Origin: a virus
Lineage: Duplodnaviria > Heunggongvirae > Uroviricota > Caudoviricetes
IMG/VR virus record: IMGVR_UViG_2802429224_000004
Coordinates: 31,285-95,284 of that record
Direction: 5' to 3' (one strand)
Length of the DNA stretch: 64,000 bases
Notes under the pieces: model-generated
The model's input: the letters and a program-made list of their open reading frames with translations, nothing else
Told to the model about the DNA's origin: nothing
Databases searched by the model: none
Shown here: one piece after another, positions 5,495-55,105 of the stretch
Numbering within the stretch: the stretch's first letter is position 1
Layout: each line of letters begins with the position of its first letter
Translations under genes and position numbers: made by a program

Positions 5495-5694
5495 GTATTT
5501 TTAAGTCGCGAATGCTATCTTTTCGCATCATATTGACCTTTTAATCGTTCAGGCTTATAGTTCCCGCCGTCGTAGCAAATTCTGCGACCGGGTTTAGCAG
5601 CCTGAATACTTACGCGGACAACCGCAGATTTCCGATATTGCGGTATTTTTGTGTCCGTAAACCACGTTACGCCCGAATTATGGTGGGGCGTGAT

Positions 5695-5770
5695 GGGGAG
5701 GCTTCGGCCTGCTGGTTTCGTAAGTGCCAGTCTGCTAACCCCGTCACGTCCTGCCACCTGTTTAGCAGCG
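5695..5770 (+). ncRNA. c4: c4-like antisense repressor RNA of immI (boundaries approximate)
   Basis: UUCG-capped hairpin (AGGC-TTCG-GCCT); loop sequence CGTAAGT is complementary to ACTTACG found both upstream (about 5600) and at the icd RBS (about 5791). Confidence 0.35.
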
Positions 5771-9683: not shown

Positions 9684-9806
9684 TACAATCGCTGCGGGTG
9701 CTTGAGGCTATCTGCTTCAGGCATTACCCGAAAAGCAGATAGAAGAAAGCCCCAGATAACATTACGCGTCCGGCAAGACGCTTAACATTAATCTGAGGCC
9801 ACATCT

Positions 9807-10013
9807 ATGCTTAACATACGTAGATTAGCCTCTTACCGACCAAAAGGTCAAGGAGAAGCAGGCTATGAAGCAGCAAAAGGCGATGTTAATCGCCCTGATC
9901 GTCATCTGTTTAACCGTCATTGTGACGGCACTGGTAACGAGGAAAGACCTCTGCGAGGTACGAATCCGAACCGGACAGACGGAGGTCACTGTCTTCACAG
10001 CCTACGAATCTGA
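9807..10013 (+). CDS. mok-like overlapping reading frame of a hok-family locus
   Basis: 68 aa ORF overlapping the hok-like CDS in another frame. Confidence 0.3.
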   Translation: MLNIRRLASYRPKGQGEAGYEAAKGDVNRPDRHLFNRHCDGTGNEERPLRGTNPNRTDGGHCLHSLRI

Positions 10014-23851: not shown

Positions 23852-26112
23852 AAGAGCTGTGCTATGGATCTGTTTGCAGTGGAATTGAAGCCGCGAGTAT
23901 TGCCTGGGAACCGTTGGGTATGCGTCCGGCGTGGTTTGCTGAAATCGAGCCTTTTCCATCTGCCGTTCTTGCGCACCGCTGGCCCCATGTCGCCAACCTT
24001 GGCGACATGACAAAACTTGCCAAAAAAGTCCTGGCTGGGGAAATCGAATCCCCTGATGTGCTCGTCGGGGGAACACCTTGTCAGGCATTCAGTATCGCTG
24101 GATTACGTGGTGGGCTTGATGATGAGCGTGGCGCGCTAACTTTAAAGTATGTGGAGCTTGCAAATGCAATTGACGACAAACGGGCTGAGTCATTTCTCAA
24201 ACCAGCCGTTATCGTCTGGGAAAATGTCCCAGGAGTCTTGTCATCGGCAGATAACGCCTTCGGATGTTTCCTTGCCGGATTGGCTGGAGAAGATGCGCCA
24301 TTTGAACCAGGTGATCGACCTGAATCAGGAAAAAGTAACGCGTTCTGGCGGTGGGATGGCAAAACCGGTTGCCATGCTCCAAAGTGGCCGCAGTGTGGTT
24401 GTATTTATGGACCGCAGCGAAAAGTGGCCTGGAGAATCCTTGATGCCCAATACTTCGGAGTGGCACAACGACGCCGACGCGTGTTTGTTGTCGCAAGTGC
24501 TCGAACAGACCTCGATCCCGCAACGGTACTTTTTGAGTTCGAAGGCGTGCGCCGGAATATTGCGCCGAGCCGAAAAAAGAAGGAAATCACTTCCGCCATT
24601 ATTGCAAATGGCGCTGCAATCAGTGGCGAAAGCCTAAATCTATGCCTACACGCTGACATGCCACCCGGTATGAAATCGACGAAAGCCGTAAACGCTTTCA
24701 GGATGGCAGCATTTGGGGAATATATTGACGATGAAACCGCATCGACAGTAAAGGCAAGAGATTTTAAAGATGCCACTGACCTTGCCGTTTTTAGCAGCAC
24801 AGGAGCAGGTTTTTGGTCAGAAGGGCATGGTACATTGCGGGCACGTGAGCAAGAAAGCCATGAGCATCTTGTTACATTGGCTTTTCCTGAGCGTATGAGC
24901 GGTACACAACATGCTGCAACTAAGAATACTTCACCATCTCTAATGGCTAAAAATCCAACAGCTGTTTGCTATGAAGTAAGAAACGCAGAAGTAGCTGTCC
25001 GCCGTCTTACCCCTGTCGAATGTGAAAGGCTGCAAGGTTTTCCTGATGGGCATACGTTGATCCCGACGGAAAAGCGTAAAAAAGTTAATTCAGATGAACT
25101 GGCATACCTTCGCAAAAACTATCCTGATTTGAGCGAAGAAGAGGCCGCGATGCTTGCAGCTGACGGACCGCGTTACAAAGCGATCGGCAATAGTATGGCG
25201 ATACCAGTAATGCGCTGGATTGGCGATCGGATTACCAAGGCTGCATGTCGGCAGAATGAAGGGAATGAAACAAAAGAGCGAAAAGTTAAACCAGCGGCAG
25301 AATTCGAACGGTCCATATTCAAATGGGCTGGTGGAAAATTTGGTGTTCTGGAACAAATCTTTCGCTATTTGCCAGAAGGGAAGCGCCTGATTGAACCTTT
25401 CGTCGGTGGCGGAGCTGTCTTCATGAATGCCGGATACAAGGAAAATCTGCTAAATGATGTGAATGCTGACCTGATTAACTTTTACAAGACTTTGCAACGT
25501 GAGGAACGTTCACTTATCACTCTGGCGCATCGGTTTTTCCAGGACTACAACACACAGGAAGGATACCTGGCAGTACGGAATGCGTTTAACAAACAAGTCT
25601 ATGATGATTTACATCGCGCAGCGGCGTTTTTGTTCCTGAACCGACATTGTTTTAACGGATTGACGCGTTACAACCAAGCCGGTGAGTTCAATGTCGGTTA
25701 TGGGAAGTATAAAACTCCGTATTTCCCATTGCAGGAGATGGAAGCCTTCCTTGGTGCGGAAGGGCGTTCTGAGTTTGTATGTGGTGATTTTGCTGCGGTG
25801 ATTGAAGCTGCCGGAGAAGGAGATGTCATTTTTTGCGATCCGCCATATGAACCGCTTCCAAATACAGAGGGATTCACGAACTATTCCGGTCATGACTTTA
25901 AGTTTGAAGAGCAAAAACGCCTGGTGTCTCTGTTGACGGATGCTCATCGCCGAGGTGCAAAGGTTCTAATTACTAACAGTGGCGCGCCAAATATCAGAGA
26001 GCTTTATCATGACAGTGGCTTCAGAGTGGAACCTCTTTTTGCCAGACGTTCTGTGTCTTGTAAGGGGGACACTCGAGGTGTAGCTCATGACGTTTTAGGT
26101 ATATTGCTCTAA
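23848..26112 (+). CDS. dmt: Bifunctional DNA methyltransferase Dmt: N-terminal C5-cytosine domain, C-terminal Dam-like N6-adenine domain
   Basis: 754 aa; [12 protein letters not shown] (PCQ motif) and [11 protein letters not shown] (ENV motif); later [12 protein letters not shown]...EPFVGGGAV and DPPY. Confidence 0.8.
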
Positions 26113-26119
26113 TAAATTT
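26103..26119 (+). promoter_or_regulatory. C1 operator, perfect 17/17 (Op72-like, ban operon)
   Basis: ATTGCTCTAATAAATTT overlapping the dmt stop codon. Confidence 0.7.
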
Positions 26120-26293
26120 ATTAGTGTAATATCGCCTCAATGAATCGTGATTTATAGAGCGATTTAGCTGTTAGCCGCGACAGGCGCGGCGGTAAGCATG
26201 GCTGGGCCTAGTCCTCCCAGACAAACCACCGAGTTGCCAGGTTGACCATGCGCCTAAGTGGCAACACCGAAGTGCGTTACGAGCTTCCAGTTT

Positions 26294-26318
26294 GCCCATC
26301 TTCGGGTGGGCGTTTTTT
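26294..26318 (+). terminator. Rho-independent terminator or attenuator about 180 nt downstream of the operator
   Basis: GCCCATC-TTCG-GGTGGGC followed by GTTTTTT. Confidence 0.55.
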
Positions 26319-26498
26319 CAGGGTTTTCGTCATGGTTAGCGACTTTGCGGCGGTTTAGAAACTGACCATTAAAGTAAATGCAAACGATGATCTGATGATG
26401 GCAGCGGCCTAAGAAGCCAGACGCCACGGGGTATGAGTCGTCCCCCGTCAAAAAATCGACCGCAGAGTGTCCCCGTCTGTGTATTAGGGAACGGGGAG

Positions 26499-26579
26499 GC
26501 ACAACAGGTAAGGGCGCTGGTGTGATTAACCAGATGAACGAGAAGGGGCCATCTGTTGGTCAGCGTCCTTTCCTGTTGC
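26499..26579 (+). other. Structured hairpin element Y1
   Basis: GCACAACAGGTAAGGGCG pairs with CGTCCTTTCCTGTTGCG around an internal hairpin. Confidence 0.35.
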
Positions 26580-26783
26580 GTCTTCTTTTCAGCGTAACAG
26601 CGGTGCTTAACAGCACTTTGGGTACAGTTCCACGAATTTACGGGTATATCCCGTCATGCTGAAAGCGCTAATCACGCTGGAAGCCAGGGTTATGCATCCC
26701 CTGTTACCGAATTGCAGCCAGGGCGCGGTGCGCCGAAAAGCATACGGAGGTGGAAGCCCTCGCCGGAGACGTACCCGGCAAGT

Positions 26784-26858
26784 GATGGTGTAGCTCAGCG
26801 GTAGAGCAGTTGGCTGTTAACCAACTGGTCGGTGGTTCGAATCCACCCACCATCGCCA
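26784..26858 (+). tRNA. tRNA-Asn (anticodon GTT)
   Basis: Hand-folded cloverleaf: acceptor GATGGTG/CACCATC, D-arm GCTC...GAGC, anticodon loop CTGTTAA, T-arm GGTGG-TTCGAAT-CCACC, CCA encoded. Confidence 0.8.
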
Positions 26859-26860
26859 AT

Positions 26861-26993
26861 GCCGGTTTAGCTCAGTGGGAGAGCACGAGAGCCAAAGCAT
26901 CGTTTCTACTTCGGTAGACAGCCTTGCTGGTCAAATGACAACGATTCGATGTTAGGCCAGAGGTCAGCGGTTCGAATCCGTTAACCGGCACCA
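26861..26993 (+). other. Atypical 133-nt tRNA-like element lacking a recognisable anticodon arm
   Basis: Canonical acceptor (GCCGGTT/AACCGGC), D-arm, AGGTC variable loop, T-arm GGTTCGAATCC and ACCA, but about 60 extra nt in the centre including a TCTAC-TTCG-GTAGA hairpin. Confidence 0.35.
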
Positions 26994-26995
26994 GC

Positions 26996-27081
26996 ACAAC
27001 AGGTAAGGGTATTTTGCGACGTCGGAGATCGCCGAGCTTGGCAGAGGGTTCGAATCCCTACGAAGTACCCTTACCGTTGTG
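26996..27081 (+). other. Structured hairpin element Y2
   Basis: CACAACAGGTAAGGGTA pairs with TACCCTTACCGTTGTG; contains an AGGG-TTCGAAT-CCCT T-arm-like hairpin. Confidence 0.35.
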
Positions 27082-27226
27082 AGGAAGTGCAGCTCTTTGA
27101 AGCAACCAGAAGATAAGCATCTGGCTTCACCACATAAACCGCAGGAACGACCAATAAACGGTAGTCCGTATGGAGAACACCCCGTTGAGGAAGAGGCCTG
27201 GCCGGAACCGTAACCGGCACTACAAC

Positions 27227-27308
27227 GTTGAGAACACTGGCGTAACGGGGTCATATCCCAATCTATGAATAAATGTCGCGAGGCAGCGTGACAACCAGTG
27301 TTCTCAAC
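27227..27308 (+). other. Structured hairpin element A
   Basis: Perfect 14-bp stem GTTGAGAACACTGG/CCAGTGTTCTCAAC; loop carries GTAACGGGGTCATATCCCAATCTA. Confidence 0.35.
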
Positions 27309-27497
27309 ATTGTGGTGAATGCACAGGCTGATGTGCCGCAACTACAGTAGTGCGCGCTTTGCGGGGCTTGCTACAACCCTGTGTCGGAGTTCAGCACCGA
27401 CCATCACAGTTTGATTCTCTGGCATGAGCATAACGCTGAAATAAGTCCAGTCTGGTGCGGCCCGATCACCCGCCGTTAGCTCCACGAAACGGAGCAC

Positions 27498-27725: not shown

Positions 27726-27962
27726 ATGCAGAACAATCCGAACAAATGTCGAACGCTATGGGTGCGGTTATATATTTATGCCGTCCTCTGTTTGATTGTG
27801 TCACTGGTTCTGTATGTTTGGCTTTTGCCAAATATGATCTCATCTAACAGCACAATACTTGTATTGTTGGGAGTCCTTCTCGCGCTCATTTACCCGGCTT
27901 TCGCAGTAGTCTTTTTTCGTGAAAAAACCAGGAAATTAATTAATGAAAAAAACGTTGATTAG
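27726..27962 (+). CDS. Small membrane protein (P1 upl-like)
   Basis: 78 aa, two hydrophobic helices, immediately upstream of the lipoprotein gene. Confidence 0.45.
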   Translation: MQNNPNKCRTLWVRLYIYAVLCLIVSLVLYVWLLPNMISSNSTILVLLGVLLALIYPAFAVVFFREKTRKLINEKNVD

Positions 27963-28770
27963 TGCAGCGATTATTTTGGGTTCTTTATGTCTGACCGGAT
28001 GCGATCGGGTAGAGCCAGGTAACGTAGGGATCAAAGTAAATAAGCTGGGGGATGATAAAGGTATCGGTGAAGTAGTTGGTGTTGGTCGCTACTGGACAGG
28101 CTTGAATACTGAAGTTTATATCTTCCCGACCTTTAAGCAAATGAAGACATACGATGAGCCGTTCAGCTTCCAGATGAGCGACGGAACAACCATTGGTTAC
28201 CACATCGGCGTAGCCTACAAGGTTGATCCAGCAAAAGTCACAACGGTATTTCAGACCTATCGCAAAGGTGTAGATGATATTACTGATACCGATCTACGCC
28301 AGAAGGTTGCAGATGCTCTGAACCGGTTAGCCAGCAAAATGACCACCGACAAATTTATCGACGGTGGCAAATCTGAATTGCTTGATGCAGCCCTTAAAGA
28401 CATTCAGGAAGAAATGACGCCAATCGGCATTCAGGTGATGAGCCTCTCTTATGTAGGTAAGCCAGAATATCCGCCAACAGTTATTGACAGTATTAACGCC
28501 AAAGTTACGGCAAACCAAAAAACCCTGCAACGCGAGCAAGAGGTCAAACAACGTGAAGCAGAGGCCAACATGCTGCGCGCGGAAGCTGCCGGACAGGCTG
28601 ATGCTATTCGCACAAAAGCCCAGGCCGAAGCTGATGCCATTCGTTTACGTGGTGAAGCTCTGCGCCAGAACCCCGGTGTTATGGAGTTGGAAGCGATCAA
28701 CAAATGGAACGGTACATTACCGCAGTATATGACCAGTAATGCCGCTGTTCCGTTTGTTCCGGTGAAATAA
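27943..28770 (+). CDS. SPFH/band-7 domain lipoprotein (P1 plp-like)
   Basis: 275 aa; lipobox LCLTGC; coiled Ala/Glu-rich C-terminus. Confidence 0.55.
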   Translation: MKKTLISAAIILGSLCLTGCDRVEPGNVGIKVNKLGDDKGIGEVVGVGRYWTGLNTEVYIFPTFKQMKTYDEPFSFQMSDGTTIGYHIGVAYKVDPAKVTTVFQTYRKGVDDITDTDLRQKVADALNRLASKMTTDKFIDGGKSELLDAALKDIQEEMTPIGIQVMSLSYVGKPEYPPTVIDSINAKVTANQKTLQREQEVKQREAEANMLRAEAAGQADAIRTKAQAEADAIRLRGEALRQNPGVMELEAINKWNGTLPQYMTSNAAVPFVPVK

Positions 28771-28797: not shown

Positions 28798-28873
28798 GGC
28801 CCTTTAGCTCAGTGGTTAGAGCTGGCGACTCATAATCGCACGGTCACCGGTTCAAGTCCGGTAGGGGCCACCA
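28798..28873 (+). tRNA. tRNA-Ile2 / Met-type (anticodon CAT)
   Basis: Hand-folded cloverleaf; anticodon loop CTCATAA; T-arm ACCGG-TTCAAGT-CCGGT; close to E. coli ileX as remembered. Confidence 0.75.
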
Positions 28874-54831: not shown

Positions 54832-55025
54832 TGTTTTTTGACTGCCGATGTTACATTGAACCTGACCTCTTGCGCCTTGAGGCATTTTCGGTTTATGCTT
54901 ATCAGGCACCTCATTAAAACGGGTGCCGGGATTGGCCTCCCGCTTAAGTCTAAGGCGATACAGACGCCGCTCGCGTCTTTTTTTGTATCGGCGTACACGC
55001 ACACCTCTACAATGGTGGGCTGTAT

Positions 55026-55105
55026 GGGGCTACCTTCGGGTAGGCTGGTTACCTTGGACGCCAGTAAGGCCAACTCCGTACAGTCCACCGCCAGCAAGAT
55101 TGGTC
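55026..55105 (+). ncRNA. Second c4-like antisense RNA with a different targeting loop (boundaries approximate)
   Basis: CTACC-TTCG-GGTAG hairpin; loop CCTTGGACG is complementary (with G-U pairs) to GTCTAAGG upstream (about 54952) and CGTCTAAGG at the icd-like RBS (about 55131). Confidence 0.3.

Follow-up and report, generated by a model that had tools for sequence, protein, structure and literature searches.

A 64,000-nt stretch of the IMG/VR record IMGVR_UViG_2802429224_000004 (the window, to which coordinates refer unless another locus is named; the element with its parts, tRNA-Asn and the ban promoters lie on the + strand) carries at 26861-26993 a 133-nt tRNA-like gene, hereafter the element, that consists of a complete tRNA body without an anticodon and is therefore unable to read a codon. 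The window is a P1-type phage-plasmid and the element begins 2 nt past the 3' end of its tRNA-Asn gene. On balance, and with moderate confidence, we favour the reading that the element encodes a functional RNA that does not decode and belongs to a family not described before, in which the tRNA body serves as a scaffold for a conserved module whose invariant junction binds a partner. A preliminary description of this DNA had listed a tRNA-like RNA with another role among several options; that option is now favoured by the structure and covariation of the frame, the invariant junction columns and the tRNA calls obtained for 14 of 14 variants after an in silico arm swap, the role itself being inferred. 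No description of the element was found in Rfam 15, in which the interior alone matches no family, or in the searchable literature, and its public annotation is only "tRNA-OTHER".

A tRNA body without an anticodon arm

The element reads GCCGGTT-TA-GCTC-AGTGGGA-GAGC-A at its 5' end and AGGTC-AGCGG-TTCGAAT-CCGTT-AACCGGC-A-CCA at its 3' end. The two strands of the acceptor stem (26861-26867 and 26983-26989) paired in 99% of cells of the family alignment, with compensatory double changes in six of the seven pairs, and are followed by the discriminator A and an encoded CCA (26990-26993). The D arm (26870-26884; GCTC-AGTGGGA-GAGC, including A14 and G18G19) has a stem that was 100% paired with one compensatory pair, and next to it stands an A at tRNA position 26 (26885). 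On the 3' side an invariant variable loop, AGGUC (26961-26965), precedes a T arm (26966-26982; AGCGG-TTCGAAT-CCGTT) that was 100% paired with compensatory changes in three of its five pairs. NCCA was encoded at the 3' end of 9 of the 14 variants, NCCC in three others and NCCT in one. The 7-bp acceptor stem, D arm and T arm with a GTTCRANYC loop of a canonical tRNA body were all present, and the anticodon arm (5-bp stem, 7-nt loop, U33, purine 37) was missing: a 17-nt window test found no 5-7-5 arm in any register of the interior in 14/14 members. The preliminary description had likewise found no such arm, and its account of tRNA-like start and end sequences and of a TCTAC-TTCG-GTAGA tetraloop hairpin (26905-26918) was accurate to the base.

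ARAGORN called nothing at 26861-26993 in default or intron mode, and the Rfam tRNA model RF00005 (gathering score 29 bits) gave no match over this span even at E<=10. When the 74-77-nt interior was exchanged in silico for the P1 anticodon arm, ARAGORN in default mode called a tRNA in 14/14 variants compared to 0/14 shuffled-frame controls. A covariance model scored the window element at 156.7 bits and family members at 120-162 bits compared to at most 57 bits for ordinary tRNAs, and its best frame-only matches were tRNA-Thr genes of the P1 type. A degraded tRNA pseudogene was rejected as an explanation, as the stems are intact in 14/14 sequences, the arm-swapped frames were all called as tRNA and unrelated phages conserve the module.

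Another explanation is a tRNA that becomes able to decode once an intron (group I in the anticodon loop, or bulge-helix-bulge) or other extra sequence has been removed; of those weighed, it was the least probable. The preliminary description had raised it, and it would fit the position of the element in a tRNA-Thr or tRNA-Ile slot and the PGAP/tRNAscan-SE label of a tRNA of undetermined type. However, exhaustive single excision gave a 5-7-5 arm with U33 and R37 in 0/14 variants, and 13/14 were left without even a 5-bp stem; no excision restored the arm in any variant. ARAGORN intron mode also failed, with forced models appearing only at 80% thresholds and discordant among homologues (Ser, Val, Leu, His, Lys). 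No Rfam intron or group I match was found and the module is far too small for such an intron, a group I core (P3-P8) typically exceeding 200 nt; moreover, the 17-nt arm of tRNA-Thr was replaced outright.

The intact acceptor stem and elbow, the presence of NCCA or NCC in all variants and a frame closest to tRNA-Thr genes would also suit an aminoacylatable molecule working outside decoding, either as an amino-acid donor or as a mimic that binds the ribosome or EF-Tu in the manner of transfer-messenger RNA (tmRNA), with the module as an identity or targeting element. We consider this distinctly unlikely. Members differ at pairs 2-71 to 6-67 and at the discriminator, so that the frame holds no conserved synthetase identity set, and the anticodon bases on which E. 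coli ThrRS depends are missing here. An arm approximately 14 bp longer than an anticodon stem and carrying a junction knob should not fit the ribosomal tRNA sites. The tmRNA search of ARAGORN was negative and no tag open reading frame (ORF) was found, and tmRNA identity was rejected; no ORF was conserved. Within the module (26935-26955) there is a mini-ORF, ATG ACA ACG ATT CGA TGT TAG (MTTIRC*), in which several between-variant substitutions fall at third codon positions. It was rejected as coding, the ATG being missing in phage Jgk1 and in variant L010 and the stop lost in variant L015 and Jgk1.

Exchange of the tRNA-Thr and tRNA-Ile anticodon arms

In P1 (trnT), P7 and RCS47 the same slot of the ban operon, likewise 2 nt past tRNA-Asn, is filled by a 76-nt tRNA-Thr(UGU) gene, which has further orthologues in D6 and pLF82. 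Alignment showed that this gene has its flanks, CCA and, nearly unchanged, its acceptor stem, D arm and T arm in common with the element, the variable loop being ATGTC in the P1-type tRNA-Thr and AGGTC in the element. Aligned with the tRNA-Thr genes of P1, P7, RCS47 and pLF82 and with Gamaleyavirus tRNA-Ile, the element carries a 75-nt module (26886-26960) in place of anticodon-arm positions 27-43. The 17-nt tRNA-Thr arm CCTGC-CTTGTAA-GCAGG was exchanged entire, leaving no remnant beyond the 27-43 C-G pair, and the net extra length compared to the tRNA is only 57-58 nt. In SSU5-like plasmids, too, tRNA-Thr(UGU) is the alternative allele, and frame and flanks are again the same, the gene order being Asn-Thr-Ser in pLF82 and Asn-element-Ser in pSTM_Phi.

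A second tRNA identity was involved in the Gamaleyaviruses (N4-like), where the element is found in phage Jgk1. The slot with the downstream flank of Jgk1 is filled in ST4 and PBM-3 by tRNA-Ile(AAU), and the frames of this tRNA (GTCCGCT...AGGTC-ACTGG...AGTGGAC) and the Jgk1 element (GTCCGTT...AGGTC-ATTGG...AACGGAC) are visibly related. The module boundaries are identical in the Thr and Ile lineages, with position 26 and the variable loop retained and 27-43 exchanged. In jumbo-size contigs the element frame has its T arm, not its acceptor stem, in common with neighbouring tRNA(CAT) genes, so that this case is no more than suggestive.

The preliminary description had also suggested a disrupted P1 tRNA-Thr. 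This holds insofar as the element is allelic to the tRNA-Thr(UGU) of P1, P7, RCS47 and pLF82 and built on a common frame, but the gene is not decaying or accidental: the whole arm was replaced and the module is conserved in unrelated phages and in another tRNA frame. That description had named a standard tRNA fold, or a mere recent insertion or assembly error, as grounds for discarding its reading, and neither was found. A one-off insertion or assembly error was rejected because the element is identical in at least three E. albertii plasmids and three viral contigs, with diverged copies elsewhere.

Two other sets of tRNA-like sequences were observed beside these loci. ST4 (L288 1667-1739) and PBM-3 (L287 1674-1749) carry, beside tRNA-Ile, a non-canonical tRNA-like gene of 73-76 nt whose anticodon loop is abnormal. 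ARAGORN reports this gene as 'tRNA-???' with a 2-nt anticodon and the records label it tRNA-Thr or tRNA-OTHER; it is different from the element. Directly upstream of the element in jumbo-size contigs (L019 1779-1887, 1895-2001 and approximately 2005-2085; also L270 and L269) lie tRNA-like pieces uncalled by ARAGORN. They have D-arm or T-arm consensus, one with a 6-bp acceptor-like stem, and gave weak covariance-model matches (16-27 bits); two folded no better than shuffles and by eye lacked proper acceptor stems.

Distribution, structure and selection

De-duplication left 14 distinct sequences, all 133-135 nt in length. Of the 11 PLSDB plasmids with a full-length copy, three are IncY P1-like plasmids of E. 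albertii (100% identity) and the others are phage-plasmids, five SSU5-like ones from E. coli and three SSU5/pSTM_Phi-like ones from Salmonella. The full-length element is also present in six complete RefSeq plasmids of E. coli, where exactly these 133 nt are labelled "tRNA-OTHER" by PGAP. In addition to Jgk1, the element is carried by uncultured viral and metagenomic contigs of 43 kb to several hundred kb, including an N4-like 70-kb contig (L017) and jumbo-size contigs of 135-370 kb. Apart from tRNAs, the uncultured lineages have nothing in common with known phages, and a tRNA array surrounds every copy. Scans anchored on different interior parts found no module outside a tRNA frame and recovered the same member set. 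Hairpin 1 of the module was left free in one scan and hairpins 2 and 3 in others, and BLAST independently found Jgk1 and the plasmids. More diverged relatives may have escaped a collection made largely with exact patterns. A scan of genome contigs gave no family member among the matches listed, which were mostly GC-rich chance matches, and a scan with the pattern GCTGGTC..GACAACGA added nothing among the matches listed.

RNAalifold applied to the 14 sequences independently gave the cloverleaf frame, a GCC/GGC segment, a 6-bp helix (GCAUCG/CGAUGU in the window) and three hairpins. Consensus pairing reached 92.9% of cells compared to 83.1% in shuffles, with 0/500 shuffles as high; 12 pairs showed double changes, and slid controls were 28-40% paired. 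In this model the module is an irregular stem of approximately 14 bp that leads into a compact four-way junction, from which three short hairpins project. The proximal part, an irregular stem with an internal loop, has CGAGAG-CC-AAA on its 5' side (26886-26896) and TA-GGC-CAG (26953-26960) as partner; GCC/GGC is conserved with one compensatory change and the remaining positions are mostly non-Watson-Crick. A K-turn reading of the proximal CGAGAG/CCAG region, nearest the tRNA core, was not adopted, as in variant L010 this region is a regular Watson-Crick helix. Next follows the module stem proper, termed stem P1 and made up of helix b and two A-U pairs, whose 5' strand GCAUCGUU (26897-26904) pairs with 26947-26952 and 26940-26941. 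Its 3' strand, AA-(CGAUU)-CGAUGU (26940-26952), holds a 5-nt bulge, and the duplication CGAU-U-CGAU permits two registers. Helix b with two A-U pairs fits 14/14 sequences compared to two mismatches for the other register (helix a), which was rejected for this stem and retained only as a possible alternative conformer. One helix b pair, columns 40-94, is CG in eight sequences, GC in five and UA in one, with 100% of cells paired. The preferred register predicts an 8-bp stem with a 5-nt bulge that opens straight into the four-way junction with no linker nucleotides. Of the junction hairpins, hairpin 1 (26905-26918; UCUAC-UUCG-GUAGA) was invariant in 14/14, including the scans that left it free, and hairpins 2 (26919-26929; CAGC-loop-GCUG) and 3 (26930-26939; GUC-loop-GAC) have invariant stems and loops of 3-4 nt, those of hairpin 2 varying in sequence and length and those of hairpin 3 also variable. 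The predicted minimum free energy (MFE) fold of the window sequence instead pairs GAUUCGA of the module with the element's own T loop, a pairing rejected on inspection of the alignment, which showed that it is not conserved in Jgk1 or L010.

Variation was distributed very unevenly over these parts. None of the 36 columns of the junction helices and UUCG loop was variable, compared to 7/8 columns of the hairpin-2 and hairpin-3 loops, which vary in length too (Fisher P = 2e-7), and 19/24 columns of the acceptor and T stems (P = 2e-11), where pairing was always retained. Between the N4-like carriers Jgk1 and L017, three compensatory acceptor pairs differ. The invariant junction, the variable but paired stems and the variable loops indicate a junction constrained for sequence, a tRNA body constrained for structure and saturated loops, with selection on the module at the level of sequence.

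Hairpin 1 resembles the handle of the Cas12a (type V-A) CRISPR RNA (crRNA), and the element could in principle be a CRISPR-related RNA on a tRNA scaffold, acting as an RNA anti-CRISPR or a guide. The segment cgUUUCUACU-UCG-GUAGAc has UUUCUACU and GUAGA in common with the V-A repeat end AAUUUCUACUGUUGUAGAU (repeat sequence in the supplement of PMC10651486), approximately 30 nt follow hairpin 1 at the position of a spacer, and phage RNA anti-CRISPRs exist (PMC10651486). We regard this explanation as highly improbable, however. The match spans only approximately 13 nt, and the handle's 5' AAUU is missing; at the DNA level the overlap is limited to TTTCTACT and GTAGA compared to ...AATTTCTACTGTTGTAGAT. 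Unrelated phages conserve the spacer-like stretch, which forms hairpins whose loops carry indels, and Rfam gave only a meaningless CRISPR-DR26 match (E = 7). E. coli, Salmonella and E. albertii are not known to carry Cas12a, which also counts against this explanation. The solitary repeat units termed Racr (PMC10651486), small phage RNAs that disable a host system through mimicry of a host RNA, are comparable to the element, but the validated V-A Racrs of Moraxella prophages are near-complete 36-nt repeats (34-36/36 matching; PMC10651486), compared to a short match embedded in a tRNA body. The likeness of hairpin 1 is real but short, and Racr identity was rejected. The sole E. coli match of the spacer-like stretch is a 20-nt exact identity, CTGGTCAAATGACAACGATT, between 26927-26946 and the ylaC-pdeB intergenic region of approximately 1,530 E. 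coli chromosomes (locus L267 2501-2520). Its start is not at the handle; it lies just after a hairpin, in the sense of both flanking genes, and was judged to be chance. An antisense or guide target in E. coli was rejected, this being the only match.

Conservation of the helices could also arise at the level of DNA, with a small selfish or neutral palindromic cassette spreading into phage tRNA genes by recombination at the conserved sequences of the D and T arms and inactivating them, the helices reflecting a DNA recognition site or recent spread and the RNA having no function. The palindromic-hairpin module is flanked by 6-bp inverted repeats (ATCGTT...AACGAT), it is found in different tRNA frames, the allele is rare, the window copy lies in a mosaic patch of approximately 200 bp amid DNA 99% identical to P1, and tRNA-Thr is evidently dispensable for these phages. 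Even so, we consider this explanation unlikely. The module replaced tRNA sequence between identical boundaries and was not inserted with duplication of a target, and no accompanying mobility gene was present among the neighbours examined. The combination of saturated loops and invariant stems implies that the copies are old and constrained. Furthermore, the carrier tRNA frames are perfectly paired with compensatory changes between related carriers, length is kept at 133-135 nt, and the scans never recovered the module outside a tRNA frame.

Genomic setting and proposed role

The 745 nt upstream of the element are 99% identical to P1, the identity also obtained for 26040-26800, and include the P2ban/P1ban promoters of the ban operon (26087-26132) with the C1 operator ATTGCTCTAATAAATTT (26103-26119), as annotated in the P1 record NC_005856, which places the element in the C1-repressed ban operon. 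The tRNA-Asn(GUU) gene (26784-26858) was called by ARAGORN and matched the Rfam tRNA model at 75.5 bits; it diverges from P1 tRNA-Asn although the flanks are 99% identical. Divergence from P1 is limited to a patch of approximately 200 bp comprising tRNA-Asn and the element, which, by its sequence, looks like an imported cassette. The next ARAGORN call is a tRNA with a CAT anticodon (28798-28873) corresponding to P1 trnI, with none between it and tRNA-Asn. As in P1, the plp ORF on the opposite strand overlaps the final 30 nt of the element.

Several other features were observed in this region. A segment resembling a T arm, GAGGGTTCGAATCCCT, lies a short way downstream of the element (27018-27067); it gave a weak match to the mascRNA model and may be a tRNA remnant. 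The E. albertii plasmid pEA36_1 has a tRNA-Ser(UGA) approximately 230 nt downstream of its copy that has no counterpart in the window. A long near-perfect inverted repeat, CAACGTTGAGAACACTGG ... CCAGTGTTCTCAACATTG, lies in the plp ORF region (27207-27327) and produced spurious miRNA-model matches on both strands. A 275-aa SPFH/Band 7 protein (Pfam E = 1e-30) is encoded at 27943-28770, the position of tciA (TerB-like) in P1 and of a 'putative serine protease' in RCS47, a variable slot of the ban operon. Elsewhere in the window, Rfam matches at 5555-5761, 9696-9870 and 54906-55095 identified two copies of the C4 antisense RNA (one with an a1/b1 target, one after isrK, itself an Rfam match) and the sok antitoxin RNA. 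The C4 and sok RNAs are ordinary P1-type immunity and addiction RNAs.

The sequences establish a gene family with its structure, the selection on it, the missing anticodon, residence in tRNA arrays and the operon context; expression, maturation, partner binding and biological role are inferred. The operon context suggests how a functional non-decoding RNA might be made. Upon derepression of the prophage, tRNA-Asn and the element would be co-transcribed from the C1-repressed ban promoters. RNase P would cut at the 5' end of the element, 2 nt past tRNA-Asn, and, as happens with the neighbouring tRNAs, 3' trimming would stop at the encoded CCA. The D/T elbow would give an L-shaped, nuclease-resistant and stable body that acts as a scaffold for processing and stability, and perhaps as a recognition handle, without reading codons. 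The invariant junction would then be the payload for a specific conserved partner, most plausibly a protein; invariant helices with free loops favour recognition by a specific partner over an antisense seed.

A candidate role for such an RNA is that of a decoy or inhibitor of a host factor acting on tRNAs, an attractive idea but a speculative one. The idea draws on phage tRNA arrays, which have increasingly been linked to counter-defence, and on the N4-like 70-kb contig, in which a protein with a Tad2-like (Thoeris anti-defence 2) domain (L017 2203-2697) is encoded downstream of the element at a distance of approximately 1 kb, following a gene of the N4 Gp49 family. A broader proposal, possible but doubtful in our estimation, is that the module is a horizontally exchangeable payload that turns ordinary phage tRNA genes, those for Thr and Ile and possibly others, into effector RNAs on a tRNA scaffold, the junction trapping or inhibiting a conserved host factor such as a tRNA-directed defence nuclease, which would make it a new class of RNA anti-defence element housed in phage tRNA arrays.

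Several results weigh against a functional RNA with a specific partner. The element allele is rare (11/253 plasmids with the corresponding tRNA-Thr-type gene). Members were gathered largely by exact-match patterns, which inflates the apparent invariance, with each block left free in at least one scan. By nearest-neighbour energies the consensus fold lies 5-13 kcal/mol above the predicted MFE of each sequence. Covariation among frames could partly reflect the independent capture of tRNAs that already differed, not selection after capture. No consistently accompanying protein gene was found among the carriers, and a two-gene system was rejected; ORFs of approximately 203 aa downstream of the element in L007 and L010 encode two unrelated proteins, and Pfam gave no RNA-handling domain among the neighbouring ORFs tested.

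The broad kind to which the element belongs, tRNA-like non-coding RNAs, is already known, and the closest natural precedent is the species 1 RNA of phage T4. The T4 species 1 and 2 RNAs (rnaC, 139 nt; rnaD, 119 nt) are stable small RNAs annotated at the end of the phage tRNA cluster, with a function long unknown and a size like that of the element. The element likewise lies in a phage tRNA array, is within approximately 120-140 nt and has tRNA-like termini. In T4 rnaC, a long interior unlike a tRNA is framed by an acceptor-like terminal stem and a canonical T arm (CCGGG-TTCGAAT-CCCGG); unlike the element, rnaC lacks the D-arm consensus, its terminal stem is imperfect and its interior is unrelated. 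There was no sequence similarity, the covariance model matched neither rnaC nor rnaD, the interiors are unrelated, and homology was rejected. A second comparison is with engineered tRNA scaffolds, in which RNAs placed in the position of the tRNA anticodon arm are stably expressed in E. coli (PMC3753655, PMC3401473). There too a structured RNA is grafted in place of the arm, host tRNA enzymes mature the scaffold RNA and the tRNA fold protects it (PMC3753655, PMC3401473), but these scaffolds are man-made, whereas the element arose in nature, is conserved and recurs across several tRNA frames. YrlA and other bacterial Y RNAs (RF02553) and the tRNA-like domain of tmRNA, like the element, mimic parts of a tRNA (T arm, D arm, acceptor), in their case to engage tRNA-recognising proteins. 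The termini of YrlA form a Ro-binding helix and its acceptor-like stem is closed, whereas those of the element form a true acceptor stem with CCA. YrlA identity was rejected on a score of 20.5 bits compared to a threshold of 69, the match straddling the tRNA-Asn T arm and the element D arm. What is new in the element is a full, covarying tRNA body in which the anticodon arm only was exchanged, for a module common to unrelated phages and tRNA identities.

The usual view of phage tRNA arrays is that of toolkits of ordinary tRNAs that serve codon usage or counter-defence. The family described here indicates that a tRNA slot can house a conserved non-decoding RNA that retains the tRNA body only as a chassis; it accounts for a recurrent "tRNA-OTHER" annotation and could join Rfam. 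If the RNA is expressed and has a partner, it would represent a new class of phage small RNA and a natural precedent for the tRNA-scaffold strategy of biotechnology, and the P1-like phage-plasmids of Escherichia would offer a tractable model for the role of the non-tRNA stable RNAs of phage tRNA clusters.

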